This document shows positions 1 through 51,369 of a stretch of DNA of 64,000 nt, one piece after another. The stretch comes from an uncultured Candidatus Saccharibacteria bacterium. GTDB lineage: Bacteria > Patescibacteriota > Minisyncoccia > Phycocordibacterales > UBA1550. Where the stretch lies: contig CAYWES010000001.1 in NCBI GenBank assembly GCA_964457625.1, positions 17,725 to 81,724 on the forward strand, written 5' to 3'. The notes beneath the pieces were generated by a model. It was not told the DNA's origin. It saw nothing but the letters and a program-made list of their open reading frames with translations, and did not search any database. The position numbers and the translations under genes were made by a program. Numbering within the stretch: the first letter of the stretch is position 1; every line of letters begins with the position of its first letter.

Positions 1-136
1 GTATTATTCTTGTCGCGTTTATTCTTGTTAAATTTATTCTCTATACCTTCCTCAACACCGAATATTACAATTTTGTACAATTTCTTTTTGCTTTCTAAGT
101 TGCGGAAAGGGGAGAGGAGTGTATACTTAAAGATAT

Positions 137-535
137 ATGAAACGATTTATTGCAAGCATAGTTTTTTTAACAGCGCTTATTCTTCCCGGGGCGACGCTTG
201 TGTATGCACAGCCGTCGGGTGGAACTACGAGAGAAGTGGTACTCCAGGATGGAACAAGGAGAACAGTCACCACACTTAAAAACCCCATCCAATACGACAC
301 CTTTCCAAAGTTTGTCTCTGCGGTGATTAAGGCAGTCAATCGTATACTCATGCCGTTTATCGTGCTTGCGTTTATTTGGACGGGATTCCTCTTTGTCCGC
401 GCGCAAGGGAAAGAAGAGGATCTGACGACCGCAAAAAAATCTCTCTATTGGAGCGTTGCAGGCGCGTTCATTCTTCTCGCGGCGGAAGGATTCTCAAATA
501 TTATTGCTACCACAGTGAAGACCATTGCAGGGTAA
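137..535 (+). CDS. VirB2/TrbC-like small membrane protein (T4SS-pilin-like), paralog 1
   Basis: 132 aa. Signal-like N-terminus (…LPGATLVYA/Q), LKNPI motif, then TM helix, charged loop (RAQGKEEDLTTAKK), TM helix. Same topology as the three downstream paralogs. Family assignment from memory, not searched. Confidence 0.55.
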   Translation: MKRFIASIVFLTALILPGATLVYAQPSGGTTREVVLQDGTRRTVTTLKNPIQYDTFPKFVSAVIKAVNRILMPFIVLAFIWTGFLFVRAQGKEEDLTTAKKSLYWSVAGAFILLAAEGFSNIIATTVKTIAG

Positions 536-544
536 TTTTCAACT

Positions 545-850
545 ATGACATTAAATACACTTGTCCTCTGGGTTTTGCAGATGATTGTTCAGCCTCTCGC
601 GTGGATTATTATTACCCTCGCAGCGGTCTTTTTCATGTGGAATATCTTCAAGATTATCGCAAACAGGGACAGCGCCGAGGCTCTCACGAAGCTTAAAACA
701 CAAACATTCTGGGGAGTGATTGCCCTCTTCGTAATGACCTCCGTATGGGGGCTTGTGGCATGGCTTACCAATACTTTTTTGGGGACTGCGCCGTTTATTC
801 CTCAGCTTGAGACAAATCCACAGAGGATTGATAATGTGCTCATGCGGTAG
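545..850 (+). CDS. VirB2/TrbC-like small membrane protein, paralog 2
   Basis: 101 aa. TM helix, charged loop (ANRDSAEALTKLK), TM helix ending VMTSVWGLVAWLTNT. Nt 731-750 are identical to 1225-1244 in paralog 3. Confidence 0.5.
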   Translation: MTLNTLVLWVLQMIVQPLAWIIITLAAVFFMWNIFKIIANRDSAEALTKLKTQTFWGVIALFVMTSVWGLVAWLTNTFLGTAPFIPQLETNPQRIDNVLMR

Positions 851-963
851 GGAATCGAGGGAGACACCTTGCGCTCTGCGGGCGCTTTGCTACAATAGAG
901 TGAAGCTTCATGGGCTTAGAAATGGGTATCGTTAATAGCATTTATTTATATAAGTTAAGAATT

Positions 964-1335
964 ATGAAAAAAATTATTGTAGGATTTGCTCTTTTGGCAA
1001 CACCGGTCGCGGTATTCGCGCAAAATCTTCGCGTAGGAACAGGTCAAGATTTAGGCGCCTTGATAACATTCTTCCAGGCGGTGCTCAGTGCGGCAACAAT
1101 GCTTATCATTGCCGCTGCGGTGGTGTGGTTTTTGTATGGAGTACTTATGTTTGTGGGTGCAAAAGATTCAGAAGCCCGTGATGAAGGGCGCAACAAAATC
1201 ATTGCTGGTATTATCGGTATCGCGGTAATGACCTCCGTATGGGGACTTGTTCGTTGGGTTACTAACACCGCTGGTACGGGAAGCGCGGGAGCTCCTACGG
1301 TAAACCCAGGGCAGCTTCTTCCTGGAGGTTTCTAA
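964..1335 (+). CDS. VirB2/TrbC-like small membrane protein, paralog 3
   Basis: Start moved to MKKIIVGFALLATPVAVFA/Q, which gives a signal peptide; ATG 910 or 922 are alternative starts. TM helix, charged loop (GAKDSEARDEGRNK), TM helix VMTSVWGLVRWVTNT. TGcTACAAT box at 888-896 upstream. Confidence 0.5.
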   Translation: MKKIIVGFALLATPVAVFAQNLRVGTGQDLGALITFFQAVLSAATMLIIAAAVVWFLYGVLMFVGAKDSEARDEGRNKIIAGIIGIAVMTSVWGLVRWVTNTAGTGSAGAPTVNPGQLLPGGF

Positions 1336-1363
1336 GTCATAAAATATTATTTCTTAATATACT

Positions 1364-1624
1364 ATGGGGCTTGAACAGGCAGCAGGAGATACCATCGCAG
1401 TCATCAATAGGGAGATTTTGAATCCCCTTATTTTGCTTCTCTTTGGTGCTGCGATAGTGTATTTCTTGTGGGGATTGATGGTCTTTATCAGAAATCAAGA
1501 CAATGAAGAAGCGCAGGGGGATGGGCGCCGACATATGTTTTGGGGTGTAGTGGGAATATTTCTCATGATGGCGGTGGGAGGAATACTCAATGTGCTGACA
1601 AACCTCGCAAGCCAGATCCGATAA
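1364..1624 (+). CDS. VirB2/TrbC-like small membrane protein, paralog 4
   Basis: 86 aa. ILNPL motif, TM helix, acidic loop (RNQDNEEAQGDGRRH), TM helix. Confidence 0.45.
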   Translation: MGLEQAAGDTIAVINREILNPLILLLFGAAIVYFLWGLMVFIRNQDNEEAQGDGRRHMFWGVVGIFLMMAVGGILNVLTNLASQIR

Positions 1625-1708
1625 GAAAACCTCCGCTGACCTCTAAAATCTAAAAGAAAAAATCGCTCGCTTGGTATATGCCAAGCGAGCGATTGTGGTT
1701 TTCCTAGA

Positions 1709-2332
1709 CTAAGAGATCGGCTTGAACCGCACAGTGACCCATGAGTCGGGCTTTCCAGCCCCGGGTTCAAACCTTGTACGGGCATCCATTACCCATACTT
1801 GTTTGAACGGTTCGTTGTTGCCACACTTGAACCGTGATGTTTTCTGGCCGTCCTCTACAATGATATTAATCGTCGGAGAGTAGCAGTCTACAAACTCCAC
1901 CATACATCCCACGGGAAGTGAGATATATGCATCGGGCGTTCGCTTCTTGCTTGCGGGAAGCTGCTGAATTCCGCATTTTGGCTGTGGTGCCATCGCTTGT
2001 TGTGGGGGAGCGGTAATCTCTCTCACTACGGGTAATACTACCCCGTATATGATAAAGAGTCCTATTCCCACAACGACTCCCACCGCGATGATGGGCTCAA
2101 CCATTTTGGACACCTTGTCCTTTATAGCCCTACTTCCTTTTTTGAAGAGGAGGATGACCCCCCAGATCAAAAACGGAACAATAATGTACCACCACGACCA
2201 CCAATCAGGTGATTCGAGGTTGACGTTCTTTGCCGCCCACCATATTCCTGTGGTGAAAAGGGCCGGGACAATAATTATAACAGCTATGAACCATCTCCAG
2301 GGGAATGACTTTCGCGCTTTTTCTGTGTTCAT
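1709..2332 (-). CDS. membrane protein with beta-rich C-terminal soluble domain (hypothetical)
   Basis: Start moved to MNTEKARKSF (ATG at 2332-2330), preceded by AAGAGGAA. Three hydrophobic helices followed by a roughly 90-aa Cys-containing C-terminal domain. The longer track ORF would run through the promoter and leader. Confidence 0.55.
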   Translation of the reverse strand: MNTEKARKSFPWRWFIAVIIIVPALFTTGIWWAAKNVNLESPDWWSWWYIIVPFLIWGVILLFKKGSRAIKDKVSKMVEPIIAVGVVVGIGLFIIYGVVLPVVREITAPPQQAMAPQPKCGIQQLPASKKRTPDAYISLPVGCMVEFVDCYSPTINIIVEDGQKTSRFKCGNNEPFKQVWVMDARTRFEPGAGKPDSWVTVRFKPIS

Positions 2333-2399
2333 TCTTAATTCCTCTTGTTTGTGAAAAAACAAATTGAGTTGATTCTTTTGAATCAACCTACCTCTCTTA

Positions 2400-2428
2400 A
2401 TTGTATCATATTTAGTACAAAAAGTCAA
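2400..2428 (-). promoter_or_regulatory. sigma70-like promoter TTGACT-N17-(TGa)TACAAT
   Basis: Minus strand reads TTGACTTTTTGTACTAAATATGATACAAT: -35 at 2428-2423 and -10 at 2405-2400 with a 17-nt spacer. The leader contains hairpin GTTGATTC/GAATCAAC at 2368-2387. Confidence 0.6.
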
Positions 2429-2465
2429 ATAAAAACCCCCTGAAAGACTCGCGTCTTTCAGGGGG
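2429..2465 (-). terminator. Rho-independent terminator after the SPFH gene
   Basis: 13-bp perfect stem CCCCCTGAAAGAC/GTCTTTCAGGGGG at 2436-2465, followed on the minus strand by TTTTTAT. Confidence 0.75.
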
Positions 2466-2476
2466 CTGAAACCAAA

Positions 2477-3640
2477 TCAGTTCTTTTTGTTTTGATTAAC
2501 CAAAATTTCGATTTGGTCTGCCAAAGCATTTTGTCCTTGTTTGATTTGGTCTACGAGGGCAATCTGTCCTTTGGGGATTTCTTTATTATCCCCGAGAACA
2601 TAGACGGCCTTTCCTTGTACACCGGCAACTCGAGCAACTTCCTCTCGGATTGCAAGCTCGGCAACATCGGCGTACTTGTGGAGTTGCTCCATCTTGAGCC
2701 GAGTTGCTTCTGCGGAAGCTTTTCCAACTACTTCAATGGCTTGCGCACGACGCTCTTCATAAGCGAGGTGAGCATCACCTTCCTTTGTTTTCTCGAGGAT
2801 CTTTGCTTCACCATCGCGCTCAGCTCTTGCCTTTGCGGTAAGAGAGTCTTTTACTTCCTTGCTTCCACCAGTGAGTTCAACCCTCACGATGTTGGCATTT
2901 ACGACTTTGACCCCGAGTCTGCCGATGAAACCATCTCCCAATTCATTCCCATTGAACTCTTCTCCATTTTCGTCGGTGATGATAGTTTCAACGGTATCAT
3001 TAGGGTCTTCCTTGTTTATAAGTACAAGATCCTCGAAGTCCTTACCTTTTACGAAAGGATTCATGAGAGCCTTGATCTCCGCTTCCAAGCGGAGAAACCA
3101 GTCTTTGGTTTTGAAGAGGGCAATCCAAGGGAATATAATCCTTACATGAATCACGATGTCAATCGTGACCTCCAGGTTATCCCTTGTTTCAAAGTCGTCG
3201 CAGCGGACAACGTACGCAACTTCCTTTAAGAAAAAGAAGTTTGTAGGTTCCTTCCGTCGGACATACTCCGTTTTTATGCTTTCCCCTTCCTTTGTATCTC
3301 TCATTTCCGCCCAGGTAAAGGAGTCTTCCCTGATTTTGAAGGGGGGAAGCCCAACCCAGTGCACTCCCATGACTTCACGCTGAAAATCAAGATACGCACC
3401 TTGAGCCTCGGCTGACTCGGGAACTACTTGCCATTCTCCATGGATTTGCTTTATTGCGAATTTTGCGGACCCGCAAACAAATCCTTTGAATGCATTTTCC
3501 CGGACAATTACTTGCCCGGTATTTTCTTTCGGAGTAGTGAATAGCCATTCTCTCCTCGCGAGGAGGAGTGGGCCGTATACAAACAATAGTCCTGATAAGA
3601 CCATTGCTATAAGAGTTACAACAATAAGAGTAATAAGCAT
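2477..3640 (-). CDS. SPFH/band-7 (flotillin/stomatin-like) membrane protein
   Basis: Start moved to MLITLIVV (ATG 3640-3638) with GGAGG 7 nt upstream. N-terminal TM helix. TRDNLEVTIDIVIHVRI-type SPFH core. C-terminal Ala/Glu-rich coiled region (AKARAERDGEAKILE…EERRAQAIEV). Confidence 0.6.
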   Translation of the reverse strand: MLITLIVVTLIAMVLSGLLFVYGPLLLARREWLFTTPKENTGQVIVRENAFKGFVCGSAKFAIKQIHGEWQVVPESAEAQGAYLDFQREVMGVHWVGLPPFKIREDSFTWAEMRDTKEGESIKTEYVRRKEPTNFFFLKEVAYVVRCDDFETRDNLEVTIDIVIHVRIIFPWIALFKTKDWFLRLEAEIKALMNPFVKGKDFEDLVLINKEDPNDTVETIITDENGEEFNGNELGDGFIGRLGVKVVNANIVRVELTGGSKEVKDSLTAKARAERDGEAKILEKTKEGDAHLAYEERRAQAIEVVGKASAEATRLKMEQLHKYADVAELAIREEVARVAGVQGKAVYVLGDNKEIPKGQIALVDQIKQGQNALADQIEILVNQNKKN

Positions 3641-3704
3641 AATACACCTCCTCGGTGTTTTGGTTGTTGGATTGATTGCCAAAGATCAGCAATTTCTAAG
3701 GATG

Positions 3705-3733
3705 ATTGTATCAAATTTTATCAAAAAAGTCAA
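3705..3733 (-). promoter_or_regulatory. sigma70-like promoter TTGACT-N17-(TGa)TACAAT
   Basis: Minus strand reads TTGACTTTTTTGATAAAATTTGATACAAT. Shares TTGACTTTTT and TGATACAAT with the promoter at 2400-2428. Confidence 0.6.
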
Positions 3734-3766
3734 GGTTCCTCGTATGGTACACTCTCAAGTACCCGC

Positions 3767-3851
3767 GAGTATGTGGCGGAATTGGTATACGCGTGCGTCT
3801 CAGAAGCGCATGGAGTAATCCTTGGGGGTTCAAGTCCCCCCATACTCACCA
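3767..3851 (+). tRNA. tRNA-Leu(CAG), type II, CCA encoded
   Basis: Acceptor GAGTATG/CATACTC, anticodon loop CTCAGAA, long variable arm, T-arm GGGGG-TTCAAGT-CCCCC, 3' ACCA. Confidence 0.9.
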
Positions 3852-3905
3852 AGGCACGCAAAGCCTGTTATATATTTCGCATTATTGATATAATACGTCT
3901 CATAT

Positions 3906-4619
3906 ATGATTGCACCGGAAAAACAAGGAGGACGAAAAGTTTCCATTGATGAGATTCGCGAGGGATGTATTGTTGTCACGGACAAGGATATGGTGGAGTC
4001 GCGTGTGTGTACTATCAACAACGAGTTTCGTCATGGAATGGAGATTGTAAAGGACATCAAACGCGGAGTGACGTTTTTTGGTTCCGCGCGTACGCCTATT
4101 GATTCACCGCTTTATCAGAAAGCGTATCGTCTCGCCAAGCGCATCAGCGAGGAGCTCGGCTACGCGATTATCACCGGGGGCGGTCCGGGAATCATGGGCG
4201 CGGGAAACCAAGGCGCGTATGAAGCGGGAGGGGAGTCTATCGGCTTTACCATCAAGCTTCCCATGGAGCAGACGACGAATCTCTTTATCACCAAAGAGAC
4301 GCCGTTTTATTATTTCTTTACCCGCAAGGTCGCGCTCTCATTTGCCGCTGATGCGTATGTGGTATTTCCCGGAGGGTACGGCACGCTTGATGAGCTTTCT
4401 GAAATCCTCACGCTCATACAAACAGGGAAGACCGAACGCGTGCCCATCATTCTCGTAGGTGTTGATTTTTGGCAGCCGTTTGTCGACTTTCTCAAGCACA
4501 AGGTGCTTGAAGAAGAGAAAGCCATCGATCCCGAGGACATGGATCTTTTTGTACTCACTGATGATGAAGAAAAAATCATGGAGATTCTCAAAAATACTCC
4601 TCCGCGCAGTAGGGTATAA
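3906..4619 (+). CDS. LOG family protein (TIGR00730-type, cytokinin riboside 5'-monophosphate phosphoribohydrolase-like)
   Basis: Motifs GGGPGIMGAGNQGA and PGGYGTLDELSEILTLIQTGK. TGaTATAAT box at 3886-3894. Confidence 0.85.
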   Translation: MIAPEKQGGRKVSIDEIREGCIVVTDKDMVESRVCTINNEFRHGMEIVKDIKRGVTFFGSARTPIDSPLYQKAYRLAKRISEELGYAIITGGGPGIMGAGNQGAYEAGGESIGFTIKLPMEQTTNLFITKETPFYYFFTRKVALSFAADAYVVFPGGYGTLDELSEILTLIQTGKTERVPIILVGVDFWQPFVDFLKHKVLEEEKAIDPEDMDLFVLTDDEEKIMEILKNTPPRSRV

Positions 4620-4635
4620 CATAAAGACATAAAAA

Positions 4636-4680
4636 GAAAACTCCCCAATACTCAACGTACTGAGGAGTTTTCTTTTTATG
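4636..4680 (+). terminator. Rho-independent terminator after the LOG gene
   Basis: Stem GAAAACTCC/GGAGTTTTC (4636-4672) followed by CTTTTTAT. Confidence 0.5.
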
Positions 4681-4762
4681 TGCCGAGGAGAGGACTTGAA
4701 CCTCCATGGGTTACCCCGCTTGCTCCTAAGGCAAGTGCGTCTACCAATTTCGCCACCTCGGC
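4681..4762 (-). tRNA. tRNA-Leu(TAG), type II
   Basis: Reverse complement reads GCCGAGGTGGCGAAATTGGTAGACGC…CTTGC-CTTAGGA-GCAAG…GGTTCAAGTCC…CCTCGGCA. CCA is not encoded. Confidence 0.9.
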
Positions 4763-4849
4763 AGTATGTATTGCCCTGTTATACCATAAAGGGAAGGGGA
4801 CACAAAACGAGACAACCTTCTCTCAAACAAAAAAACACCCCAGTGTGAG

Positions 4850-5434
4850 CTAGGGTGCTTCAAGTGTTTTTGCTATTCGAGTGATTTTTTCATAAAAATC
4901 ACTCCACGACGCAACACGTGTCGCGATACCCTCTTCTTTGATATGAGAATTGTATTCCCATGAAAAAAGAAAACGATGCGGTACGATGTCCATGAGCGGG
5001 ACGAGTTTGTCCAAGTCGTCATCAATGAACACGTCGAGCCCTTTTGAGGCATCTGCTTTTGAGACCTGACGTCCAACTCCCGTGAAGTTCAGATCAAGAC
5101 CGCGAAGAGCGGTCCACTCTTCCGCAATGGCGAGCATCACCTCGCTTCGCGAGGTGATGACCCTGACCTCGTGTCCTTCTTTGATAAGTCGAGGGAGGAA
5201 ATACAACATCCCGTCGACAGGTTCCATCTGGAGCGCTATATCGCGGTCTCCGTACACGAGTACTTGCACGGCACGGTATTGTTCGAGGGTTAGATATCCT
5301 TCTCCAACCGCAAGCTCTCGTTTGAACCTTTCAGGGGGGATAATGACGCCATATAAGTTCTTTGCCCATAAGCTTTTGAGCTTTAAACAATCGGCAATGA
5401 CACCATCAAAATCAAGACCAATATTGATTTTCAT
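4850..5434 (-). CDS. HAD-superfamily hydrolase (5'(3')-nucleotidase-like)
   Basis: HAD motif I LDFDGVIADC, motif II VITSR, motif IV VFIDDDLDKL. Confidence 0.65.
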   Translation of the reverse strand: MKINIGLDFDGVIADCLKLKSLWAKNLYGVIIPPERFKRELAVGEGYLTLEQYRAVQVLVYGDRDIALQMEPVDGMLYFLPRLIKEGHEVRVITSRSEVMLAIAEEWTALRGLDLNFTGVGRQVSKADASKGLDVFIDDDLDKLVPLMDIVPHRFLFSWEYNSHIKEEGIATRVASWSDFYEKITRIAKTLEAP

Positions 5435-5546
5435 AGGATATTCCTCCTAGGGGTGAGTTGAAAGCTATTCAAGGACTTCCTTCCTATGCATAGCATAAAA
5501 GGCTGGAAAGGGGAAATCTTGAAAAAGAGGGGTGGGGGAGAGAAAA

Positions 5547-5600
5547 GGGGCACCAAATCAAAAGCCCGTCATGTATGACGGGCTTTTGATTTGGTGCCCC
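5547..5600. terminator. 26-27 bp perfect hairpin downstream of tRNA-Lys that includes the tRNA 3' end
   Basis: GGGGCACCAAATCAAAAGCCCGTCAT…ATGACGGGCTTTTGATTTGGTGCCCC. The right arm at 5592-5600 is the tRNA-Lys 3' acceptor strand plus CCA. Confidence 0.55.
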
Positions 5601-5667
5601 CGGTAGGACTCGAACCTACGACCATCTCGTTAAGAGCGAGCTGCTCTACCAACTGAGCTACGAAGGC
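5592..5667 (-). tRNA. tRNA-Lys(CTT), CCA encoded
   Basis: Reverse complement reads GCCTTCGTAGCTCAGTTGGTAGAGCA…loop CTCTTAA…GTAGGTTCGAGTCCTAC-CGGGGGC-ACCA. Confidence 0.9.
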
Positions 5668-5768
5668 ATATCTTCATAAAGAAGGTATCACGATATTATA
5701 CATAAAAGAGCCGATTAGGGAATAGTGTCATCGTGAGTACACAATACTCTCCGCCCTGCTTATTCTAG

Positions 5769-5849
5769 TACCTGGAGTGGGACTCGAACCCACAAGCCTT
5801 GCGGCGGGAAATTTTAAGTCTCCTGTGTATACCATTCCACCATCCAGGC
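5769..5849 (-). tRNA. tRNA-Leu(TAA), type II
   Basis: Reverse complement reads GCCTGGATGGTGGAATGGTATACAC…GGAGA-CTTAAAA-TTTCC…GTGGGTTCGAGTCCCAC-TCCAGGT-A. Has a G1:U72 pair. Confidence 0.85.
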
Positions 5850-5904
5850 AAGGGAATACTATGTGACCACTCTAGCAGAAAAAAGGGGGCGGGGGAAGAT
5901 TGAG

Positions 5905-5941
5905 CCCAAAGCGGGTCGGGCTTTGCCCGACCCGCTTTGGG
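5905..5941. repeat. 17-bp perfect inverted repeat between tRNA-Cys and tRNA-Leu(TAA)
   Basis: CCCAAAGCGGGTCGGGC-ttt-GCCCGACCCGCTTTGGG. There is no adjacent strong T-run, so its role (terminator or processing signal) is unclear. Confidence 0.5.
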
Positions 5942-5959
5942 TTTACGGGAGTTTTCTTG

Positions 5960-6031
5960 AGGCGTGGGCGAGAATCGAACTCGCGTATAGAGGTTTTGCA
6001 AACGACTGCCTTACCACTTGGCCACCACGCC
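5960..6031 (-). tRNA. tRNA-Cys(GCA)
   Basis: Reverse complement reads GGCGTGG-TG-GCCA-AGTGGTA-AGGC-A-GTCGT-TTGCAAA-ACCTC-TATAC-GCGAG-TTCGATT-CTCGC-CCACGCC-T. Has the U73 discriminator and an A13:A22-type D stem, as expected for Cys. The anticodon stem has two internal mismatches. Confidence 0.75.
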
Positions 6032-6380: not shown

Positions 6381-7901
6381 TTATACTTCTTGCATAACAA
6401 ACGCTTCAAGCACGTCGTTTGGTGCGATTTCTATCTTTGACTCAACCATGAGCCCGCATTCACTTCCTTCCTCTACTTTTTTTGTGGCAATTTTTGCTGT
6501 CTGAAGCTCGACAACCTTCCCGCGCCCAATCTCTGTTTCGCGACGCATAATGCGCACCTGAGCATCTTGTTCAAGGAGTCCCGAGACGACTTTTCCTCCA
6601 ATAACTTGTTTTGTCTTTGTCGCACTAAAGGTTTTGATAACCTTGAGCGTTCCCACGACGACTTCGCTCATTACCTTGGGCGTGCGCTCGACCAAGGTAC
6701 TATTGAGCCATTCGGAAAGATCATAGATAATATCAAACGTTTTGATGGTAACTTTTGACCGTTCTGCGATGTCGGCCGCACTTCGTTCAATTGGTGTGTG
6801 AAAGCCCACGATTATTGCTCCGGGAGACCCTGCGGCAAGCTTTGCGTCATTTTCTCCGATTGGTCCCACGCCACGTCCGATAATTTTAAAAGCAATACGC
6901 TCATGCTCTATTTTCCCAAGCTCTTTTTCAAGTGCTTCAAGCGTTCCTCCCACATCAGATTTGAGAAGAAGGGGGACAATGAGCGCGTCGGGTGCAAGGG
7001 GAGTCTTGCGTGAGGCGAGAATCTTTGCCTCTTCTTCAAGAAGAGAGATATTTTCCGCCTGTGCCGTCTCGGCTTCTTTTTTCGTCTCGTACATCTGCCA
7101 CGTTGCTCCCACGGGAGGGAGGGCATCAAAACCGGTGATTTGAACAGGAGAAGAAAAAGACGCTTCAGGGACTTGCTTTCCGAGGAAGTTTTCAATGGCA
7201 CGTACGGGGCTCATGCTTCCTTCCGACACAATGTATGCTCCCTTCTTGAGCGTACCGTTTTTAATGATAAGTGTTGCTGATGTCCCGCGACGCTTGTCTA
7301 TATGTGACTCAATAACAACCCCTGACGCAGGGAGTGTGGCATCTCCTGTGAAATTTTCCATCTCTGCGACAAGGAGCATCATGTCGAGAAGATCAGAAAC
7401 CCCTGTTCCTTCCTTTGCAGAGATGGGAACAAAAGCGACATCACCGCCGTAGCCCTCAAGGTAGATTTCGTTTTCCGCGAGGCTTTGTTTTGTGCGCTCA
7501 ATGTTTGCGCCCGGCTTATCGATTTTATTAATTGCTACGATATACGGAATCTCCGCTTCTATGATTGCGCGGTGGGCTTCCTTTGTCTGTTCTTTTACGC
7601 CATCTTCTGCCGATACGACAAGGATGGCAATGTCCGCAATGCGCGCACCGCGAGAACGCATTTTTGAAAACGCTTCATGTCCCGGGGTGTCGAGAAAGGT
7701 GATATGGTCTGCAAGCCCCGGCTTGGTTGTGTGGGGGACTTCATATGCTGAGAGATGCTGTGTGATACCCCCAGCTTCTTTGTCCACGATGTTCGTCTTG
7801 CGGATATAATCAAGGAGACTTGATTTCCCATGGTCGATATGGCCCATAACGACAACAATAGGCGCGCGCGGTTTGAATTTTTCGGGAGAGAGTGTAGTCA
7901 T
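6381..7901 (-). CDS. infB: translation initiation factor IF-2 (short form without the long N-terminal region)
   Basis: G domain VVVMGHIDHGKSSLLDYIRKT, DTPGHEAF, NKIDK. C-terminal IF-2 domains present. 506 aa. Confidence 0.95.
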   Translation of the reverse strand: MTTLSPEKFKPRAPIVVVMGHIDHGKSSLLDYIRKTNIVDKEAGGITQHLSAYEVPHTTKPGLADHITFLDTPGHEAFSKMRSRGARIADIAILVVSAEDGVKEQTKEAHRAIIEAEIPYIVAINKIDKPGANIERTKQSLAENEIYLEGYGGDVAFVPISAKEGTGVSDLLDMMLLVAEMENFTGDATLPASGVVIESHIDKRRGTSATLIIKNGTLKKGAYIVSEGSMSPVRAIENFLGKQVPEASFSSPVQITGFDALPPVGATWQMYETKKEAETAQAENISLLEEEAKILASRKTPLAPDALIVPLLLKSDVGGTLEALEKELGKIEHERIAFKIIGRGVGPIGENDAKLAAGSPGAIIVGFHTPIERSAADIAERSKVTIKTFDIIYDLSEWLNSTLVERTPKVMSEVVVGTLKVIKTFSATKTKQVIGGKVVSGLLEQDAQVRIMRRETEIGRGKVVELQTAKIATKKVEEGSECGLMVESKIEIAPNDVLEAFVMQEV

Positions 7902-7916
7902 GATAATAAAGAAAGG

Positions 7917-8384
7917 TTATGCGCGACGTGCACGAGTGACCGCCTCACGTTCTTCTTCGGTCATTTCGATTTCCGAAGAAAACTTTTTAATAGGTTTTGC
8001 AAAAATACTTACGCGATCGCGCGAGTAAAGACTTGAGATTACCGTACCATCGCCATGCTCGGACAAGAGTGCTATCGCAAAGCTCTGATTTCCTCCCTCG
8101 CCGGTGCCTTTGAAGGCATTGAATCGAATAGTCTCAACACTCTGAATGCTTCTCCCTAAACGATCCTCAGCGTGCTCGAGATACTGATTGGTTTCTTTTT
8201 GCCATGTTTCAAGCGCGCGTACATCATTCCCAAGTTCTCCAAGGAGCCCCTCAAGACTCTGCGCGTTTTTCCCGGAAAGAAGTTTCTTTAATCGGCGCTC
8301 AAGAATCACGAGCCACACCCCGAGGGCAATTACAAGGACCACAAGGACGGCGATAGTAAGGGTTAAAGGGGTAAAGGGTATCAT
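7917..8384 (-). CDS. DUF4446-like membrane-anchored protein
   Basis: Start moved to ATG (MIPFTPLTLTIAVLVV…), because the track start is TTG. Contains the IRFNAFKGTGEGGNQSFAIALLSEHGDGTVISSLYSRD motif recalled for DUF4446. Confidence 0.6.
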   Translation of the reverse strand: MIPFTPLTLTIAVLVVLVIALGVWLVILERRLKKLLSGKNAQSLEGLLGELGNDVRALETWQKETNQYLEHAEDRLGRSIQSVETIRFNAFKGTGEGGNQSFAIALLSEHGDGTVISSLYSRDRVSIFAKPIKKFSSEIEMTEEEREAVTRARRA

Positions 8385-8469
8385 GACAGGTATGGAAATG
8401 GACGATTCCGAGACTATACCGTATTTTTGACGATTTTGCAAAAAATATTCGAGTCTATATGATGGGGCT

Positions 8470-9648
8470 ATGAAGAATATTTATCTTGATTATGCGGCGG
8501 CAACGCCCGTTGACCCCAAGGTACAAAAAATCGTCTCAAAGGTTTTTCGCGATACATATGGGAATCCCAGCGCCCTTCACAGAAAAGGGAAAGAGGCGCA
8601 TGCCCTTTTTGAGAGTGCGCGTCAAACCATCGCAGATGTCTTGAGCGCTCATGCTGATGAAATCGTGATGACGAGCGGGGCGACAGAAGCAAATGCTCTC
8701 GCGCTCCTTGGGACAGTGCACGCGGCACGTGCTCAGGGGGTAAAGGTTCCCCATGTCATCGTCTCGTCCATCGAGCATCCTTCGGTATTGCGTACCGCGG
8801 AGATACTCGCGCATGAAGGTATCGCGCGCGTTGATTACCTTTCGGTGGACGAGAAGGGAATTGTCGACGCTCGTCTCCTCCGCGAACTCATGGGAGATGA
8901 TACGGTACTGGTGTCGGTGATGTATGTGAACAATGAAGTAGGTACGGTGGAGCCTCTTCGCGATATTGCAAAAGAAATCCGCCACTTCAAGACAAAACGA
9001 AACTCTTTCTTCCCGTATTTCCATACTGATGCGGCGCAGGCGCAAAATAGTTATTCGCTCACGGTCCCTGAGTTGGGAGTGGACTTGATGACCCTTTCCT
9101 CAGGAAAGGTATACGGTCCGCGTGGGGTAGGGGCGTTGTTTGTACGGCGAGGCATCACCCTCAAGCCTCTGTTTCAAGGGGGGACACAAGAGCGCGGTCT
9201 TCGCCCCGGGACAGAAAATGTCGCCCTTGCGTGTGGCTTTGCGCACGCGCTCGCGGTGGCACAGGAGAAGAGAGACAAAGAGACTATTCGTTTACGTGCG
9301 TTACAGGAGTATGTGCTCCACGGACTTCAAGGCGCCGTCCCTGATTGTGTCGTGAACGGTGACCCTCTCCACATGGCACCTCATATCGTAAACGTATCCA
9401 TTCCCGGAGTTGAAAGCGAAGTCCTCGTACTGTATTTGGATGCGCAAGGAATATCCGTATCAGGAAAAAGCGCGTGTGAAAGTACTACGAGTGAAGTCTC
9501 TCATGTTATACTTGCACTAGGGGGGAAGGAAAAAGATGCTTACGGAGGGACGCTTCGGTTTTCTTTGGGGAGAAATACAACCCAAAGAGATATTCGTGTC
9601 GCTCTCCGAGCACTCAAAGACGCACTCGCTATTCTCCGAAGCGCGTAA
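8470..9648 (+). CDS. cysteine desulfurase (NifS/IscS-type, class V aminotransferase)
   Basis: N-terminus IYLDYAAATPVDPKV, SSGKVYGPRGVGALF (PLP lysine region), and an active-site loop SGKSACES. Confidence 0.85.
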   Translation: MKNIYLDYAAATPVDPKVQKIVSKVFRDTYGNPSALHRKGKEAHALFESARQTIADVLSAHADEIVMTSGATEANALALLGTVHAARAQGVKVPHVIVSSIEHPSVLRTAEILAHEGIARVDYLSVDEKGIVDARLLRELMGDDTVLVSVMYVNNEVGTVEPLRDIAKEIRHFKTKRNSFFPYFHTDAAQAQNSYSLTVPELGVDLMTLSSGKVYGPRGVGALFVRRGITLKPLFQGGTQERGLRPGTENVALACGFAHALAVAQEKRDKETIRLRALQEYVLHGLQGAVPDCVVNGDPLHMAPHIVNVSIPGVESEVLVLYLDAQGISVSGKSACESTTSEVSHVILALGGKEKDAYGGTLRFSLGRNTTQRDIRVALRALKDALAILRSA

Positions 9649-19501: not shown

Positions 19502-19545
19502 ACTCAAAACACTCTCACACTGAGGGTGTTTTGAGTTTTGAAATC
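19502..19545 (+). terminator. Rho-independent terminator
   Basis: 16-bp stem ACTCAAAACACTCTCA-cac-TGAGGGTGTTTTGAGT followed by TTTG…TTTGTTTTTT. Confidence 0.65.
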
Positions 19546-19597
19546 TTTGTTTTTTCTGCTATGGTGCCCACAGATACACCACTACGGAGGAGTTCTT

Positions 19598-20107
19598 ATG
19601 ATGAGCAAGGCAACAGAAGATGCGGAGCGTACGATTGAGAACGCACGCAAGAGACTGAAAGACGGCACATGGCCTCAGGTTATGGCAGTCTTTTTTTACC
19701 CAAACCCGAAAGCCCCACGCGTGCAGGATGAAGAGTTCTTACGACTTCAATCTTTCTACGAAAATGCTTCGCTTCCCAATATGGCGCTGTTCATTGAGAT
19801 TGTGCAGTTTATGGAAAAAGAATGCGGGGTAACCATGTCGTTTAACTTCAGTTTGTGCAACCGAAGAAACCAAGGAGACCTCGGAGATTCTGAAATGACT
19901 TCAGGACATGCAACACTCTATTTTGGTACCCGTGATTTACTCGTGGGTACGCGCGGAGGAGTGGAAGGTGCCATGGTATGGTTTAGAAATATCTCTGAAG
20001 GAATTTCCATGATTGCACCGGAGCTTCTCCAGATTTTGGATAAAATCTTTGGTGAGGCGGTGGGCATTGTACGACGTCCTGAAAAGGATAAGTCTCGTGT
20101 ACACTAA
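19598..20107 (+). CDS. hypothetical protein
   Basis: Start at ATGATG, preceded by GGAGGAG. 169 aa. No recognised motif. Confidence 0.45.
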   Translation: MMSKATEDAERTIENARKRLKDGTWPQVMAVFFYPNPKAPRVQDEEFLRLQSFYENASLPNMALFIEIVQFMEKECGVTMSFNFSLCNRRNQGDLGDSEMTSGHATLYFGTRDLLVGTRGGVEGAMVWFRNISEGISMIAPELLQILDKIFGEAVGIVRRPEKDKSRVH

Positions 20108-23119: not shown

Positions 23120-23827
23120 ATGCAAAAAAACACAATTATCCGTGTAGGGTTAATAGTACTCCTGACGGTCCTTTTAGGGGCGTTTGGTGCGTCGTTTTTC
23201 TACTCCGATGGGCAGTACACGGTCTTCAATTCTGTACTGTTTATCGGAACACTGCTTTTGTTCAGAGTTTCTCTAAAGAAAGGTTTTGTCTTACCGGGAG
23301 ATATTATTTCTATAACAGCTGTTTTTGCTTCAGGTTTAGTGTTATTCGTTCTAGCCCTCATTTATCCCACCGAGCCTGCTGCCTTCGAGGGTGCAACTTT
23401 TATGCTCATCTCTGTTGTCTCAGGAACTCTGATTATTAAGGAGTCTCTAGGGTATCTTTTTGGTTCTCGTATAAACAAGTTTCTTGAGGATGCCGGTGAT
23501 CCCTTTCGTCCTAAGCTCCTTCAGGGACAACCTTTCCGCCTGGACCCTACGGGGTTCTCTCTGTTTGATGGGAAGTTTACATTCTTTTTCGCTCTCTTTA
23601 TGATAGGAATCCTCTCTTTGTATGAGGGGGTGCTCGTTAATGGCTGGCGGTTGGCGCTAGCCTTTGGGCTCGGTGGTTTTTTGATCTTGAGGGTATTTTT
23701 AGCGTGGGCATTGCCTGACCATGTTTACAAAAGAGTGCTTTCGAAGGCGATGGTTCTCCAGCTTCTGCTTGGAATCCTCATTATCTGTGCAGGTTTTTCT
23801 CTTCTCCTTGTAGACCCTCATGCTTAA
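23120..23827 (+). CDS. polytopic membrane protein (hypothetical)
   Basis: 235 aa with about 7 hydrophobic helices. Confidence 0.5.
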   Translation: MQKNTIIRVGLIVLLTVLLGAFGASFFYSDGQYTVFNSVLFIGTLLLFRVSLKKGFVLPGDIISITAVFASGLVLFVLALIYPTEPAAFEGATFMLISVVSGTLIIKESLGYLFGSRINKFLEDAGDPFRPKLLQGQPFRLDPTGFSLFDGKFTFFFALFMIGILSLYEGVLVNGWRLALAFGLGGFLILRVFLAWALPDHVYKRVLSKAMVLQLLLGILIICAGFSLLLVDPHA

Positions 23828-45925: not shown

Positions 45926-48829
45926 ATGAAAGCATACGACCACAAGGATCTTGAGGGAAAATGGCAAAAAATCTGGGAGGAGACGGGAGTGTATCGCACG
46001 GATGATTCTTCTGAAAAACCAAAACAATTTATTCTCGATATGTTCCCGTATCCATCAGGAGAGGGTCTTCATGTGGGGCATCCTAAGGGATATATTGCGA
46101 CTGACATCTATGCACGCATGAAGCGTATGAGCGGGTTTAATGTACTCCATCCCATGGGGTGGGATGCGTTTGGTCTCCCCGCGGAACAGTTTGCGATTAA
46201 GCACAAAGTACATCCTCGTGTGGCGGTAGAAAAAAATGTTGCTCGCTACAAAGAGCAACTCTCTGTTATTGGTCTTGATTATGATTGGGCACGCGAGATA
46301 AATACGACAGATCCTGCCTTTTATAAGTGGACGCAGTGGATTTTTTTGAAACTGTTGGAAAAAGGTCTTGCCTATGAGTCATATGAACCGATTAACTGGT
46401 GCCCCACGTGTCAAACGGGTCTTGCTAACGAAGATCTTGATGGAGGGAAGTGTGAGCGATGTGATACTCCCGTCGAGAAAAAGCCCATGCGACAATGGGT
46501 ACTCAAAATTACGGAGTACGCAGACCGCATGCTCAAAGACCTTGATCTCCTTAATTGGCCGGACTCTATCAAGGAAGCCCAACGAAATTGGATTGGGAGG
46601 AGTGAAGGAGCGGAAATAGATTTCAATTTGGTATTCAAATTGCATCCAAAACATAACGATTGGCGCGACCCAAAAGACGAAAAACCTGCGCATATTACGG
46701 TATTCACCACGCGTCCCGATACGCTTTTTGGTGCGACATATCTGGTGCTTGCCCCTGAACATCCTTGGGTAGAGGCTTTGTGGAATACCGAACACGACGA
46801 CAGTGTGGGTAACAAAAGTGAAATAGAGGCATATGTGAAGCATGCCAGGGAAAAGACCGATATAGAACGTGCTGACGCGACGAAAGAAAAAACGGGTGTA
46901 AACGTTGAAGGAGTTGTTGCTCTTAATCCCGTGACGAAAGAAGAGATTCCAATATTTGTTGCGGATTATGTGCTTGGAGGGTACGGTACGGGTGCGGTGA
47001 TGGCTGTCCCGGCACATGACGAGCGAGACTTTCTTTTTGCTCAGAAATTTAGCCTGCCTTTCAGGGAGGTTGTCGTGCCTCATAGGGTTGATTATAAAAA
47101 TCCCCCCGTATCAGAAAAAGAAGTTGTTACACGAAAGAATATTCATGGTCTCGTGCGTAATCCAAAAACAGGCAAGATACTTTGTCTCAAGTGGAAAGAA
47201 CATCCTTGGACAACCCTTGTGGTGGGAGGAGTAGAGGATGGTGAGGATATTATTGAAGCGGCGCGGAGAGAAATTCTAGAAGAGACGGGATATGCACACC
47301 TCAGTGAGGGTCGCATCTTGGGAGGAGAAGTACGTGCCGACTACTTTGCAGCACACAAAGATCAAAATAGAATCGCGTACACTAGTCTTGTTGCATTTGA
47401 TCTTCTTGATGAAGAACAGCAAGACATCTCAGCGGACGAACAGAGTAAACATGAAGTCGTTTGGCTTGATGAGAAGGACGTCACAGTGGAATTGATGACC
47501 CACGCAGAAATGGACATCTGGCTTGAAAGAATGAATGGCGCGACGGGGGCATACACTCATTCAGGTGTTCTTGTGCATTCCGCACAATTTAATGGCAAAA
47601 GTTCTGAAGAGGCAAAAAAAGAGATTACAGAGTTCGCAGGTGGTCGTTGGGTGACAAAGTATCGTCTCAAGGAGTGGGTGTTTTCACGTCAGCGCTACTG
47701 GGGTGAGCCTATCCCGGTTATTCATTGTCCGAAGGATGGTGTTGTTCCCGTTCCCGAGAAGGAACTTCCCGTGCTCCTACCTGATGTGACTTCGTACGAA
47801 CCCACAGGAACGGGGGAGTCACCTCTTGCGGCGATTTCAGATTGGGTCAACACGACATGTCCGCAATGTGGTGGTCCGGGCACGCGCGAGACCAATACGA
47901 TGCCTCAGTGGGCGGGATCATCGTGGTATTACCTTCGTTTCATTGACCCAGAAAATAATGAGGCACTCATTGATCCGAAAAAAGAACATATATGGGATCC
48001 AGTTGACCTTTATGTGGGAGGCGATCATGCGGTGCGCCATCTTATCTACGCGCGTTTTTGGCATAAGTTTTTGTTTGACATAGATGTAGTCCACACTCTT
48101 GAGCCGTTTATGAGACTTGAGTTTCTCGGTTTTATTCTTGCTGAAGATGGTCGTAAAATGAGCAAGCGATGGGGAAATGTCATTAATCCCGATGATGTGG
48201 TAAAAACCTATGGTGCTGACACGCTCCGTCTCTATGAAATGTTCATGGGACCCTTTGAGCAAACTATCGCCTGGAATACCGAGAGTATCATTGGACCACG
48301 AAGGTTCCTTGAGCGTGTATGGCGTTTACGAGAGAATGTTTCATCTTCGGTAAAAGATACCGAAACTCTCGAGACGATTCTTCATAAAACAATCAAAAAA
48401 GTAACGGATGATATTGAAGGGTTTGCCTTTAATACCGCGATTTCTTCGCTCATGGTGCTTTCGAATGAAATGGAGCGTGCCAAAGAATTTTCTCCCCAAG
48501 CCTACGAGACATTCCTGAAACTCCTTGCCCCCTTCGCTCCTCATATTACCGAAGAACTTTGGCATGAATTGGGGCACGAGGACTCAATCCACCTTTCTTC
48601 ATGGCCTACCTACGATCCTCAAAAATGCATCGCTACAGAGGTAACAATTGCCATTCAGATAAATGGGAAGGTCCGCGACACTCTTGTTGTGGCGGCAGAT
48701 ATATCCGAAGACGAAGTTCTCCGTATTGCCCTTGAGCGCCCTCTTGTGTCCAAATGGATGGAAGGGAAGAAGCCCGCAAAAACGATCTTTGTTCCCGGGA
48801 AACTTCTCAGTATTGTCTTAGAAAAATAA
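45926..48829 (+). CDS. leuS: leucyl-tRNA synthetase carrying an inserted Nudix domain
   Basis: HIGH (GLHVGH), CP1/editing TTRPDTLFGATY and GTGAVMAVPAHDERD, KMSKR. About 160 extra aa at 47081-47560 contain GGVEDGEDIIEAARREILEETGY. Confidence 0.95.
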   Translation: MKAYDHKDLEGKWQKIWEETGVYRTDDSSEKPKQFILDMFPYPSGEGLHVGHPKGYIATDIYARMKRMSGFNVLHPMGWDAFGLPAEQFAIKHKVHPRVAVEKNVARYKEQLSVIGLDYDWAREINTTDPAFYKWTQWIFLKLLEKGLAYESYEPINWCPTCQTGLANEDLDGGKCERCDTPVEKKPMRQWVLKITEYADRMLKDLDLLNWPDSIKEAQRNWIGRSEGAEIDFNLVFKLHPKHNDWRDPKDEKPAHITVFTTRPDTLFGATYLVLAPEHPWVEALWNTEHDDSVGNKSEIEAYVKHAREKTDIERADATKEKTGVNVEGVVALNPVTKEEIPIFVADYVLGGYGTGAVMAVPAHDERDFLFAQKFSLPFREVVVPHRVDYKNPPVSEKEVVTRKNIHGLVRNPKTGKILCLKWKEHPWTTLVVGGVEDGEDIIEAARREILEETGYAHLSEGRILGGEVRADYFAAHKDQNRIAYTSLVAFDLLDEEQQDISADEQSKHEVVWLDEKDVTVELMTHAEMDIWLERMNGATGAYTHSGVLVHSAQFNGKSSEEAKKEITEFAGGRWVTKYRLKEWVFSRQRYWGEPIPVIHCPKDGVVPVPEKELPVLLPDVTSYEPTGTGESPLAAISDWVNTTCPQCGGPGTRETNTMPQWAGSSWYYLRFIDPENNEALIDPKKEHIWDPVDLYVGGDHAVRHLIYARFWHKFLFDIDVVHTLEPFMRLEFLGFILAEDGRKMSKRWGNVINPDDVVKTYGADTLRLYEMFMGPFEQTIAWNTESIIGPRRFLERVWRLRENVSSSVKDTETLETILHKTIKKVTDDIEGFAFNTAISSLMVLSNEMERAKEFSPQAYETFLKLLAPFAPHITEELWHELGHEDSIHLSSWPTYDPQKCIATEVTIAIQINGKVRDTLVVAADISEDEVLRIALERPLVSKWMEGKKPAKTIFVPGKLLSIVLEK

Positions 48830-50067: not shown

Positions 50068-51369
50068 ATGGAATTTCTAGAGCACATAGGGCTCATCGAT
50101 CTCTATACGGGGGTCATTGGGTACCTCATTATTTTTATTAAGTGGGCGCCATTTTGGGTGCCCCTGGTACTCCTTGCGTATCTTTGGGGGTTGTGGATGC
50201 ATTATGTCCAGGCGAAGTGGCAGACTGAGGTGAAGTGGATCATGCTTGAGTTGAAGCTTCCCAAAGAGACTCATAAAGGTCCTCTTGCCATGGAGCTTGT
50301 GTTGAATGCGCTCTATCAGACAGGTTCGGGTATCTGGTATGACAAAAAAGTAAAAGGACGCGTCAAGGATAGATTTTCCCTAGAGATGGTTTCTCTGGAA
50401 GGTCAAGTAAAATTTTTTATTCGTACACCCGCCGTACACAAAAATGTAATTGAGGCTCAGCTCTATGCGCAATATCCTGACATAGAGATTTTTGAAGTTC
50501 CCGATTACACGCGCTATGTCGACTACCGAGGAAGAGAAGGAGACTGGTCGTGTGTCGGTATGGATTTTGGCCTCGGAAAGGAAGATGCCTATCCTATAAA
50601 AACGTACATCGATTATGGTCTCGATAAAGAAGGTGTCGACGAGGAATACAAAATTGACCCCCTAAGCTCTGTTATTGAGTATCTTGGATCAGTAGGAAAG
50701 GGCGAGCAAGTCTGGATTCAGATTATTGTACAGGCCGCCACGAAGGCTCACCACTATCCGCACAAAAAGGATGGGTCAATGGGGGACTGGAAGAGTGAGG
50801 GAGAAGCGTTGGTCGACAAACTTACTCAGCGCAAAGAAGAACGCGATGAAGAAGGGAAGGGCGGTCCGCGCACACAGCATATGACAAAGGGTGAGCAAGA
50901 AATTGTCGCTGCCATTGAGCGCAATATCAGCAAGTTTGGTTTTGAGTGCGGGGTCCGAGCGCTCTATGTTTGCAAACGTGATCGTTTTAATCCTTCAAAT
51001 CTCAAGGCAATCGGAGGGCTTTGGCGCGGGTTTAGTACCGCAAATCTAAATGAGTTTAAGTCTACCATTCAGACCTTCGGTGTTGATGCATGGTGGCAAG
51101 ATTATAAAGATGTTCGTATCACGAGCTATCGCAAAGCACAGTTTGAGGCATTCAAGCGTCGGGAGTTTTCATTTGAAGATCAGGTGAGATGGGTTGCAAA
51201 CATCCCCTCTGCCTCGCCAATGGTGATTACGCCGTTCAAACACCCTTTTGTATTGAGCTCTGAAGAGCTTGCAACGATATTCCATCTACCGGGAGGAGTG
51301 GTACAGACGCCAACGTTTGGCCGTCTCTCTTCACGCAAGAGCGAAGCTCCTACCAACTTGCCAATCTAA
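50068..51369 (+). CDS. conserved-looking hypothetical protein with N-terminal TM hairpin
   Basis: 433 aa. Two N-terminal TM helices, then a large soluble region ending SSEELATIFHLPGG. No family assigned. Confidence 0.5.
   Translation: MEFLEHIGLIDLYTGVIGYLIIFIKWAPFWVPLVLLAYLWGLWMHYVQAKWQTEVKWIMLELKLPKETHKGPLAMELVLNALYQTGSGIWYDKKVKGRVKDRFSLEMVSLEGQVKFFIRTPAVHKNVIEAQLYAQYPDIEIFEVPDYTRYVDYRGREGDWSCVGMDFGLGKEDAYPIKTYIDYGLDKEGVDEEYKIDPLSSVIEYLGSVGKGEQVWIQIIVQAATKAHHYPHKKDGSMGDWKSEGEALVDKLTQRKEERDEEGKGGPRTQHMTKGEQEIVAAIERNISKFGFECGVRALYVCKRDRFNPSNLKAIGGLWRGFSTANLNEFKSTIQTFGVDAWWQDYKDVRITSYRKAQFEAFKRREFSFEDQVRWVANIPSASPMVITPFKHPFVLSSEELATIFHLPGGVVQTPTFGRLSSRKSEAPTNLPI

Follow-up and report, generated by a model that had tools for sequence, protein, structure and literature searches.

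The 64-kb window, by which we mean the whole stretch of DNA that was analyzed, opens on a pilin-like array of five tandem paralogous genes on the plus strand, four of which are whole within it while the fifth is cut by the window start. We number these genes slot 0 to slot 4 in their order along the plus strand. With a probability that we put at about 95%, judging from profile matches, their products are VirB2-like proteins of the PF18895 (T4SS_pilin) family and distant relatives of the TrbC/VirB2 conjugative pilins of type IV secretion systems (T4SSs). Comparison with other genomes indicates that the array is old and fixed and not a recent amplification. Since divergent VirB2-like arrays in Patescibacteria have already been published (Wang 2023; Quinonero-Coronel 2025), the array is a further example of a described type and no new kind of system.

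Family membership and predicted topology

Slots 1, 2, 3 and 4 match PF18895 with 35.7, 27.4, 28.4 and 36.3 bits, respectively (E = 9.5e-9 for slot 1, 5.9e-9 for slot 4 and up to 3.7e-6 among the four). The gathering cut-off of this 71-position model is 26.6 bits, and essentially the whole model is covered by each of the four proteins. Since slots 1–4 exceed the cut-off, the similarity lies far beyond chance. None of these four proteins matches PF04956 (TrbC/VirB2) at E ≤ 1 in the Pfam scan, and the classical TrbC/VirB2 threshold (gathering score 27.9 bits) is reached by none of the five. Slot 0 scores 23.4 bits against PF04956 (E = 7.2e-5) over positions 9–97 of the 98 in the model, with the signal-peptide region included. 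Its PF18895 score of 22.8 bits (E about 1e-4) is under the cut-off, while the ortholog in one related locus (L008) passes at 29.6 bits. Slot 0 is the most TrbC/VirB2-like of the five proteins, though under the threshold. With the NCBIfam model NF045849, slots 1–4 score 18.3, 17.9, 21.6 and 22.3 bits (E = 7.5e-5 to 1.8e-3) against a cut-off of 40. An earlier note, written from the letters of this DNA, had described divergent VirB2/TrbC-like pilin paralogs in tandem and had proposed a Pfam search as a check. That search agrees with the description, as four genes pass the T4SS_pilin threshold, with TrbC unmatched by these four, and slot 0 has sub-threshold matches to both PF04956 and PF18895.

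The proteins do not resemble type IV pilins. No G/F(M)TLxE prepilin-peptidase site is present in the five sequences, and they have neither an N_methyl nor a pilin match in Pfam; the leaders of the array instead end in AxA-type sites (VAA/Q, VYA/Q and VFA/Q) and are followed by two hydrophobic helices. A sequence search of the PDB with the family profile placed the pKM101 pilin TraM (8cw4) at the top, at a non-significant E-value of 0.15. The PF18895-type family comprises 55,379 representative clusters at E ≤ 1e-3. Almost all pilin homologs carry PF18895. The source names of the homologs, those of the binding protein encoded beside the array (see below) included, are Candidatus Nomurabacteria, Pacebacteria, Yonathbacteria, Paceibacterota, Minisyncoccota and "Patescibacteria group". 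A contig search with a single pilin protein returned one distant locus only (L003).

Hydropathy profiles reveal two segments of transmembrane (TM) length around a short charged loop in every paralog, with an extra leader in slots 0, 1 and 3. The AlphaFold2 model of slot 1, calculated with 120 family members (mean predicted local distance difference test score of 77), consists of a leader helix, a poorly conserved small β-hairpin and a long helical hairpin with helices at residues 56–88 and 93–131. The order of TM helix, charged loop and TM helix that the earlier note had ascribed to four proteins is therefore borne out by the hydropathy of all four and by the model of the first. Read by eye, type-I-like signal peptides end at VAA/Q in slot 0, VYA/Q in slot 1 and VFA/Q in slot 3, the last two being the cleavable-looking leaders that had been noted before, and slots 2 and 4 have none. 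On the positive-inside rule, each protein is predicted to form an N-out/C-out hairpin with its Lys/Arg-bearing loop on the cytoplasmic side. The parts predicted to face outward are exactly the variable ones: in slot 1 this is the N-terminal linker, and in slots 2 and 3 it is the C-terminal tail.

Many members of the family are "poly-pilins", in which 2–8 hairpin domains are joined in one polypeptide, such as P0264 (820 aa, 8 domains) and P0250 (606 aa, 7 domains). The slot-2 gene itself is fused in two related loci, with two domains in L007 (8560–9315) and three in L008 (8311–9495). Large N-terminal passengers also occur. The distant locus L003, from Nomurabacteria RIFCSPHIGHO2_01_FULL_39_9, encodes a 383-aa pilin-domain protein (4238–5389) whose long N-terminal region looks, by eye, both repetitive and Ig-like, and the one related locus without DNA has a 559-aa slot-0 protein (gene 7807–9486) that combines DUF5018 with T4SS_pilin. 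These passengers fit N-terminal surface display.

Five positional orthologs in a gyrA-linked locus

The part of the array that precedes the window was recovered from a 13.7-kb contig (L001), found by exact-protein look-up, which is identical to window positions 1–3734 with 0 mismatches and reaches 9,864 bp farther upstream. A local hidden Markov model (HMM) built from the five paralogs detected no sixth copy in the window and the 9.9 kb upstream. The four same-strand open reading frames (ORFs) listed in the earlier note exist with the coordinates and lengths given there (Table 1), but the number of paralogs is five, not four. The start of slot 3 is almost certainly at 964, giving 123 aa, and not at the alternative ATG at 910, giving 141 aa, since the MKK start is conserved in 9/9 orthologs and the N-terminal extension from 910 aligns with nothing there.

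Eleven related loci were reached from homologs of the pilin-like or binding proteins and viewed over 8–10 kb on each side (L004, L005/L006, L007, L008, L009, L010, L011, L012, L013, L014 and the locus without DNA). All of them are gyrA-linked, and their common order on one strand is gyrA, a methyltransferase gene, a solute-binding protein (SBP) gene of the SBP_bac_1 family and then 4–8 pilin genes; in L014 the contig ends at the gene that stands in the place of gyrA, and this gene has no Pfam record. When the window's own locus is included, the array has five genes in nine of the twelve loci and ranges from four to eight, with eight in L010.

In an all-against-all BLAST comparison, the best score of each window paralog is with the gene at the same position elsewhere. 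Orthologs in the nearest relatives score 76–122 bits, against a maximum of 66 bits for any paralog. Across nine further loci, this correspondence holds for slots 0, 1, 3 and 4 in every five-gene array and for slot 2 in the closer relatives, where the orthologs of L004, L005, L011, L012 and L013 match slot 2 best. Within the window the paralogs are 19–29% identical to the first paralog, and the slot 1 orthologs are 29–61% identical, their post-leader linker differing in both length and sequence. Since the window paralogs are positional orthologs across genomes, the duplications that produced them are ancient.

Each slot has a signature of its own. Slot 0 is marked by a leader, by GLVPCG...C.F.DL, in which both Cys residues are invariant in nine orthologs, and by F.Y.G and AK..F motifs, and slot 1 by a leader and a hypervariable linker followed by NP and GFLFV.AQG. 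The leaderless slot 2 has WG..A..vM.s.WGLV and a variable C-terminal tail rich in Pro, Asn and Thr, while slot 3 starts with the MKK leader, contains the motifs GR...I.G.IG and WGLV and ends in a variable Pro-rich tail. Slot 4, minimal and likewise leaderless, carries i.NP.i.LLFA and GK.HM.WG and is the last array gene in 9/9 aligned five-gene arrays. The NP(I/L) motifs reported earlier for two of the proteins both exist, but they do not align with each other and each is specific to its slot. These conserved signatures suggest a separate, fixed role for each of the five slots and speak against interchangeable variants, and the earlier description of the proteins as "alternative" pilin subunits is not upheld.

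Slots 2 and 3 share the 20-mer GTAATGACCTCCGTATGGGG, located at exactly 731–750 in slot 2 and 1225–1244 in slot 3, which forms the first 20 nt of a 44-nt stretch with 82% identity (731–774 versus 1225–1268). Both the 20-nt identity and the common VMTSVWGLV peptide had been recorded at these places, together with the proposal that they arose by duplication or gene conversion. However, in L004 and L005, which were the two relatives compared at the nucleotide level, the peptide is likewise common to slots 2 and 3, in the form VMVSVWGLV. Since it is shared there too, with differing synonymous codons, VM(T/V)SVWGLV is an ancestral motif. Between slots 2 and 3 of the window, synonymous codons agree in 4/4 cases inside the 20-mer and in 6/24 elsewhere, which is the random rate. 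The agreement inside the 20-mer has an uncorrected P of 0.0035, given the peptide, and the chance that four agreeing codons follow one another at some point of the alignment is about 7%, as estimated from those codon counts. At the variable residue of VMxSVWGLV, both window copies have T, and both copies of L004 and of L005 have V. This concerted pattern could reflect a short conversion tract or co-evolving packed neighbors. No repeat or recombination structure was found at the flanks of the pilin genes. Given the chance of about 7% for such a run, gene conversion was rejected as an established event and kept as a possible one, and a recent duplication does not agree with old positional orthologs that share an ancestral peptide.

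The SBP_bac_1 gene lies immediately 5′ of the array on the same strand in 12/12 genomes, the window's own and the eleven relatives, and no ABC permease gene adjoins it in any of these twelve loci. In the window genome, a small class-I S-adenosylmethionine-dependent methyltransferase and a membrane-anchored, distantly MalE-like family-1 SBP are encoded on the array's strand at L001 7703–9559. A gap of 3–4 nt precedes slot 0, and gaps of 9–113 nt separate the pilin genes. Elsewhere, the SBP gene runs 4 bp into the slot-0 gene (L008, L009, L013 and L014), and the methyltransferase gene runs 1 bp into the SBP gene (L010). A promoter-like site, identified as a consensus match only, stands before the methyltransferase gene. 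At the other end, the inverted repeat at 1661–1694 resembles an intrinsic terminator that would act in both directions and close the array; the terminator scan, also by consensus match, called it on both strands with 14–15 pairs (L001 11525–11558). The best explanation of these features is a chromosomal, vertically inherited, putative operon that ends in the array and belongs to a Paceibacteria-type (Nomurabacteria-like) Patescibacterium of the Candidate Phyla Radiation.

Possible function and relation to known systems

We lean, with some reserve, toward a T4SS-dependent filament as the mechanism in which the array proteins take part. The five hairpin proteins would be inserted as a pool in the cytoplasmic membrane, with their two termini exposed on the outer face and the charged loop reaching into the cytoplasm. 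From this pool, a VirB4-type machine whose genes lie elsewhere would extract the hairpin subunits and build from them a heteromeric surface filament or conduit for host-cell contact, in which each slot may have a distinct structural role, for example as the major subunit, base or tip. Beyond the family membership, topology and conservation observed above, we infer T4SS dependence, polymerization and distinct roles of the slots.

Several observations weigh against this filament. No VirB4, TrsD, VirB6, VirB3/PrgI, VirB8 or VirD4 domain is encoded in the 64-kb window or the 9.9 kb upstream, a T4SS-free span of −9.9 kb to +62 kb around the array, and the eleven related loci have no T4SS ATPase or channel gene within 8–10 kb on either side of the array. 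Fold searches return only generic helical hairpins, and the fused members with 2–8 hairpins are hard to square with a classical single-subunit pilin. No pilus of such proteins is known to have been observed in any Patescibacterium, and reviews call the pilus a possibility (PMC12857230). The earlier note was right that VirB4, VirB6 and VirD4 are missing downstream, with none encoded in the 64 kb, but its suggestion that the apparatus lies upstream of coordinate 1 fails, as the three genes are absent from both the 9,864-bp extension in L001 and the eleven related loci. Linkage of PF18895 to virB4 is typical but not universal. A VirB2-like pilin gene has been reported near virB4 in 1,135 of 1,948 Patescibacteria assemblies (PMC12102498), and such linkage is found neither at the window nor at the eleven related loci. 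In Paceibacteria, virB4 is commonly near dnaA/dnaN (PMC12102498); the GC skew is positive over nearly all of L001 and the window, and thus no origin-like switch lies within reach.

The hairpin proteins could instead form a T4SS-independent module with the MalE-like SBP and perhaps the methyltransferase. In one form, this might be a membrane platform or short fiber that anchors or displays the SBP for nutrient capture or adhesion to host glycans. Such a module accords with the SBP_bac_1 gene directly upstream on the same strand in all twelve genomes, with the 4-bp and 1-bp gene overlaps and with the promoter-like site 5′ of the methyltransferase gene. It also accords with the persistence of the methyltransferase–SBP–pilin block where the downstream flank differs (L010, L011, L013 and L014) and with the finding that these loci have neither an ABC permease beside the SBP nor a T4SS gene nearby. 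On the other hand, gyrA and ancestry are common to all twelve loci, so the adjacency may be inherited synteny; PF18895 genes do lie near virB4 in the majority of assemblies cited above, and there is no precedent for an SBP acting with VirB2-like proteins. We therefore consider a T4SS-independent module unlikely. Its more specific version, in which the gyrA-adjacent operon is a self-contained surface module of Paceibacteria without a T4SS and a heteromeric VirB2-like fiber or membrane platform displays the orphan SBP or feeds substrates to it, is a long shot in our view. If true, it would represent a nutrient- or glycan-capturing appendage of a host-dependent organism, and the methyltransferase might modify its subunits.

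Two further explanations concern the array proteins alone. They might be interchangeable major-pilin variants for antigenic or host-range variation, diversified by duplication and gene conversion, an idea raised in published discussion (PMC12102498). The divergence of the paralogs (19–29% identity), the hypervariability of the outward-facing linker and tails between genomes, the 20-nt identity of slots 2 and 3 and the T/V residue concerted within each genome are all compatible with this idea. However, each slot has its own ortholog elsewhere, which outscores the paralogs, together with private invariant motifs and its own leader status, and the array size is five in most of the loci. Outside the 20-mer, moreover, synonymous codons agree at the random rate, and the flanks have no repeat or recombination structure. 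Because of the positional orthology, an antigenic-variation cassette is disfavored, and we regard it as quite improbable. Alternatively, the proteins might be generic small two-TM membrane proteins, holin-like or membrane-stabilizing, whose "pilin" HMM match reflects nothing but hydrophobic-hairpin composition. The Pfam scores are indeed modest (27–36 bits), the fold search cannot tell the array proteins from other helical hairpins, the TrbC model is not passed and the NF045849 scores of 18–22 bits are far from the cut-off of 40. Nevertheless, the PF18895 matches exceed a curated threshold across the whole model, and slot 0 matches nearly the full length of the TrbC model, signal-peptide region included. 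Family members also sit in T4SS clusters, those of S. epibionticum being essential, and the array occupies a core chromosomal locus with no phage genes nearby. Because of the full-length supra-threshold matches and the TrbC-like slot 0, a purely compositional match is disfavored, and generic two-TM proteins seem very improbable.

Arrays comparable to that of the window are known from Patescibacteria. A published catalog lists 441 arrays, found in 383 Patescibacteria assemblies and each made up of 2–11 VirB2-like genes, for which the mean identity is 25% (Quinonero-Coronel 2025, PMC12102498), and these arrays are most abundant in Microgenomatia and Saccharimonadia, not in Paceibacteria (PMC12102498). 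The T4SS cluster SEML1_0006–0019 of Southlakia epibionticum ML1 has six VirB2-like pilins according to a later review of 2025, in which a monoderm T4SS pilus is an intriguing, unproven idea (PMC12857230). The window array resembles the catalogued arrays and those of S. epibionticum ML1 and Nanosynbacter lyticus TM7x in its PF18895 similarity and remote PF04956 similarity, in its tandem, same-strand arrangement within the range of 2–11 small genes with about 25% mutual identity, and in belonging to the same phylum. These arrays are also alike in being chromosomal, not plasmid-borne, with no relaxase in the neighborhood. Unlike the arrays in Patescibacteria T4SS clusters, the window array lies outside any T4SS cluster over the span given above, and unlike the published arrays it sits in a gyrA–methyltransferase–SBP block conserved across Paceibacteria. 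The terms "gyrA" and "solute-binding" are absent from the main text of PMC12102498, and a fixed five-slot Paceibacteria architecture is not found in the available passages of Wang 2023, PMC12102498 and PMC12857230.

The classical pilins TrbC (RP4), VirB2 (Agrobacterium) and TraM (pKM101) share with the array proteins a small precursor, an N-terminal signal peptide and two hydrophobic helices with a short hydrophilic loop. In contrast to these PF04956 pilins, the array proteins score below the PF04956 threshold, belong to a monoderm host and have no adjacent virB3–virB11, and five fixed paralogs stand in place of the one major pilin of classical conjugative systems. Bartonella and Anaplasma, host-dependent as well, likewise have VirB2 homologs that are amplified in tandem and divergent in sequence (cited in PMC12102498). 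Those arrays accompany T4SS genes, and antigenic variation is the interpretation given for them, whereas the window copies are ancient positional orthologs with slot-specific motifs. The Mbov_0395 family (NF045849), from integrative and conjugative elements of Mycoplasma, is similar in that it comprises a small two-helix pilin-like protein of a wall-less/monoderm lineage with a T4SS of the MPF-FATA type. However, that protein is single-copy and encoded within a mobile element, and the window proteins score under the cut-off of its model.

The host-dependent Patescibacteria account for much of the bacterial diversity that is still uncultured, and their T4SS, which has unusual VirB2-like pilins, is the first for which essentiality to its own carrier was shown. 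The pilin genes of Paceibacteria, as a fixed five-slot set, argue for distinct structural roles over antigenic variants, and they are set apart from the secretion ATPase genes. The SBP gene that invariably precedes the array provides a concrete candidate partner.

Feature coordinates, neighboring genes and the rest of the window

Table 1. Coordinates of the array genes, the shared stretch and the adjoining features (window positions unless L001 is named).
Feature	Position	Strand	Description
Slot 0, 3′ end	1–98	+	Whole gene of 132 aa at L001 9564–9962, begins 300 nt before the window
Slot 1	137–535	+	132 aa; ..LVYA/QP leader, hypervariable linker, NPI motif, helical hairpin
Slot 2	545–850	+	101 aa; no leader; VMTSVWGLV motif; variable Pro/Asn-rich C-terminal tail
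Slot 3	964–1335	+	123 aa from the MKK start; ..AVFA/QN leader; VMTSVWGLV; variable Pro-rich C-terminal tail
Slot 4	1364–1624	+	86 aa; no leader; minimal hairpin domain; i.NP.i.LLFA and GK.HM.WG motifs
Shared stretch, copy 1 (slot 2)	731–774	+	44 nt; encodes VMTSVWGLV.W.TN of helix 2
Shared stretch, copy 2 (slot 3)	1225–1268	+	Partner of 731–774
Inverted repeat	1661–1694		17+17 nt, perfect-type, T-runs on both sides; between convergent genes
Multi-TM protein	1709–2428	−	Soluble C-terminal domain; 207–239 aa depending on the start; no significant family match
SPFH/Band_7-like membrane protein	2477–3682	−	387–401 aa; Band_7 weak here, 15 bits
UDG, ApbE, NAD-binding oxidoreductase, GyrA, small class-I methyltransferase, SBP_bac_1	Upstream 9.9 kb (L001)		Assigned by Pfam

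Three further genes called in the 9.9 kb upstream have no Pfam match. Downstream of the array, the usual order in the related loci is a convergent pair, encoding a TM protein and an SPFH/Band_7-like protein, followed by rbfA, infB, DUF4446 and nifS. The convergent pair recurs in most related loci; L010 and L014 lack it, and in L008 three shorter genes take its place. A gene of 143–366 aa occupies the position of the multi-TM protein in most related loci. The protein at 1709–2428 was considered as a PrgI/VirB3 component of a T4SS and rejected, as it scores 15.9 bits with PrgI against a cut-off of 27. At the position of the 2477–3682 gene, Band_7 is recorded in L004, L007 and L009 and is weak in L012. 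A link of either convergent neighbor to the array is unproven.

The remainder of the window has housekeeping content. It encodes LOG, NT5C, IF-2, DUF4446, NifS, superoxide dismutase, ClpB, Alr, MiaA, a peroxiredoxin, a release factor, ribosomal proteins S2, S11, S4 and S9, DnaG, RpoD, a DsbA-like protein, ZnuA with an ABC ATPase, YchF, leucyl-tRNA synthetase (LeuRS), YceG, MnmA, MgtC, alanyl-tRNA synthetase and RpoA, together with eight tRNAs. Two large ORFs were assigned to RpoB and RpoC by reading and not by a domain scan. Between the neighbors of the array and rbfA–infB, a stretch at 3767–6031 contains the tRNA genes Leu-CAG, Leu-TAG, Lys-CTT, Leu-TAA and Cys-GCA amid the LOG-family and NT5C-like genes. 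Four plus-strand ORFs of 189–433 aa (19538–20107, 23120–23827, 50068–51369 and 56849–58030) have no Pfam match at E ≤ 1e-3. The 967-aa LeuRS (45926–48829, plus strand) has a NUDIX match (PF00293, 48 bits) at residues 405–529, just after the editing domain, and this NUDIX insertion is unusual for LeuRS.

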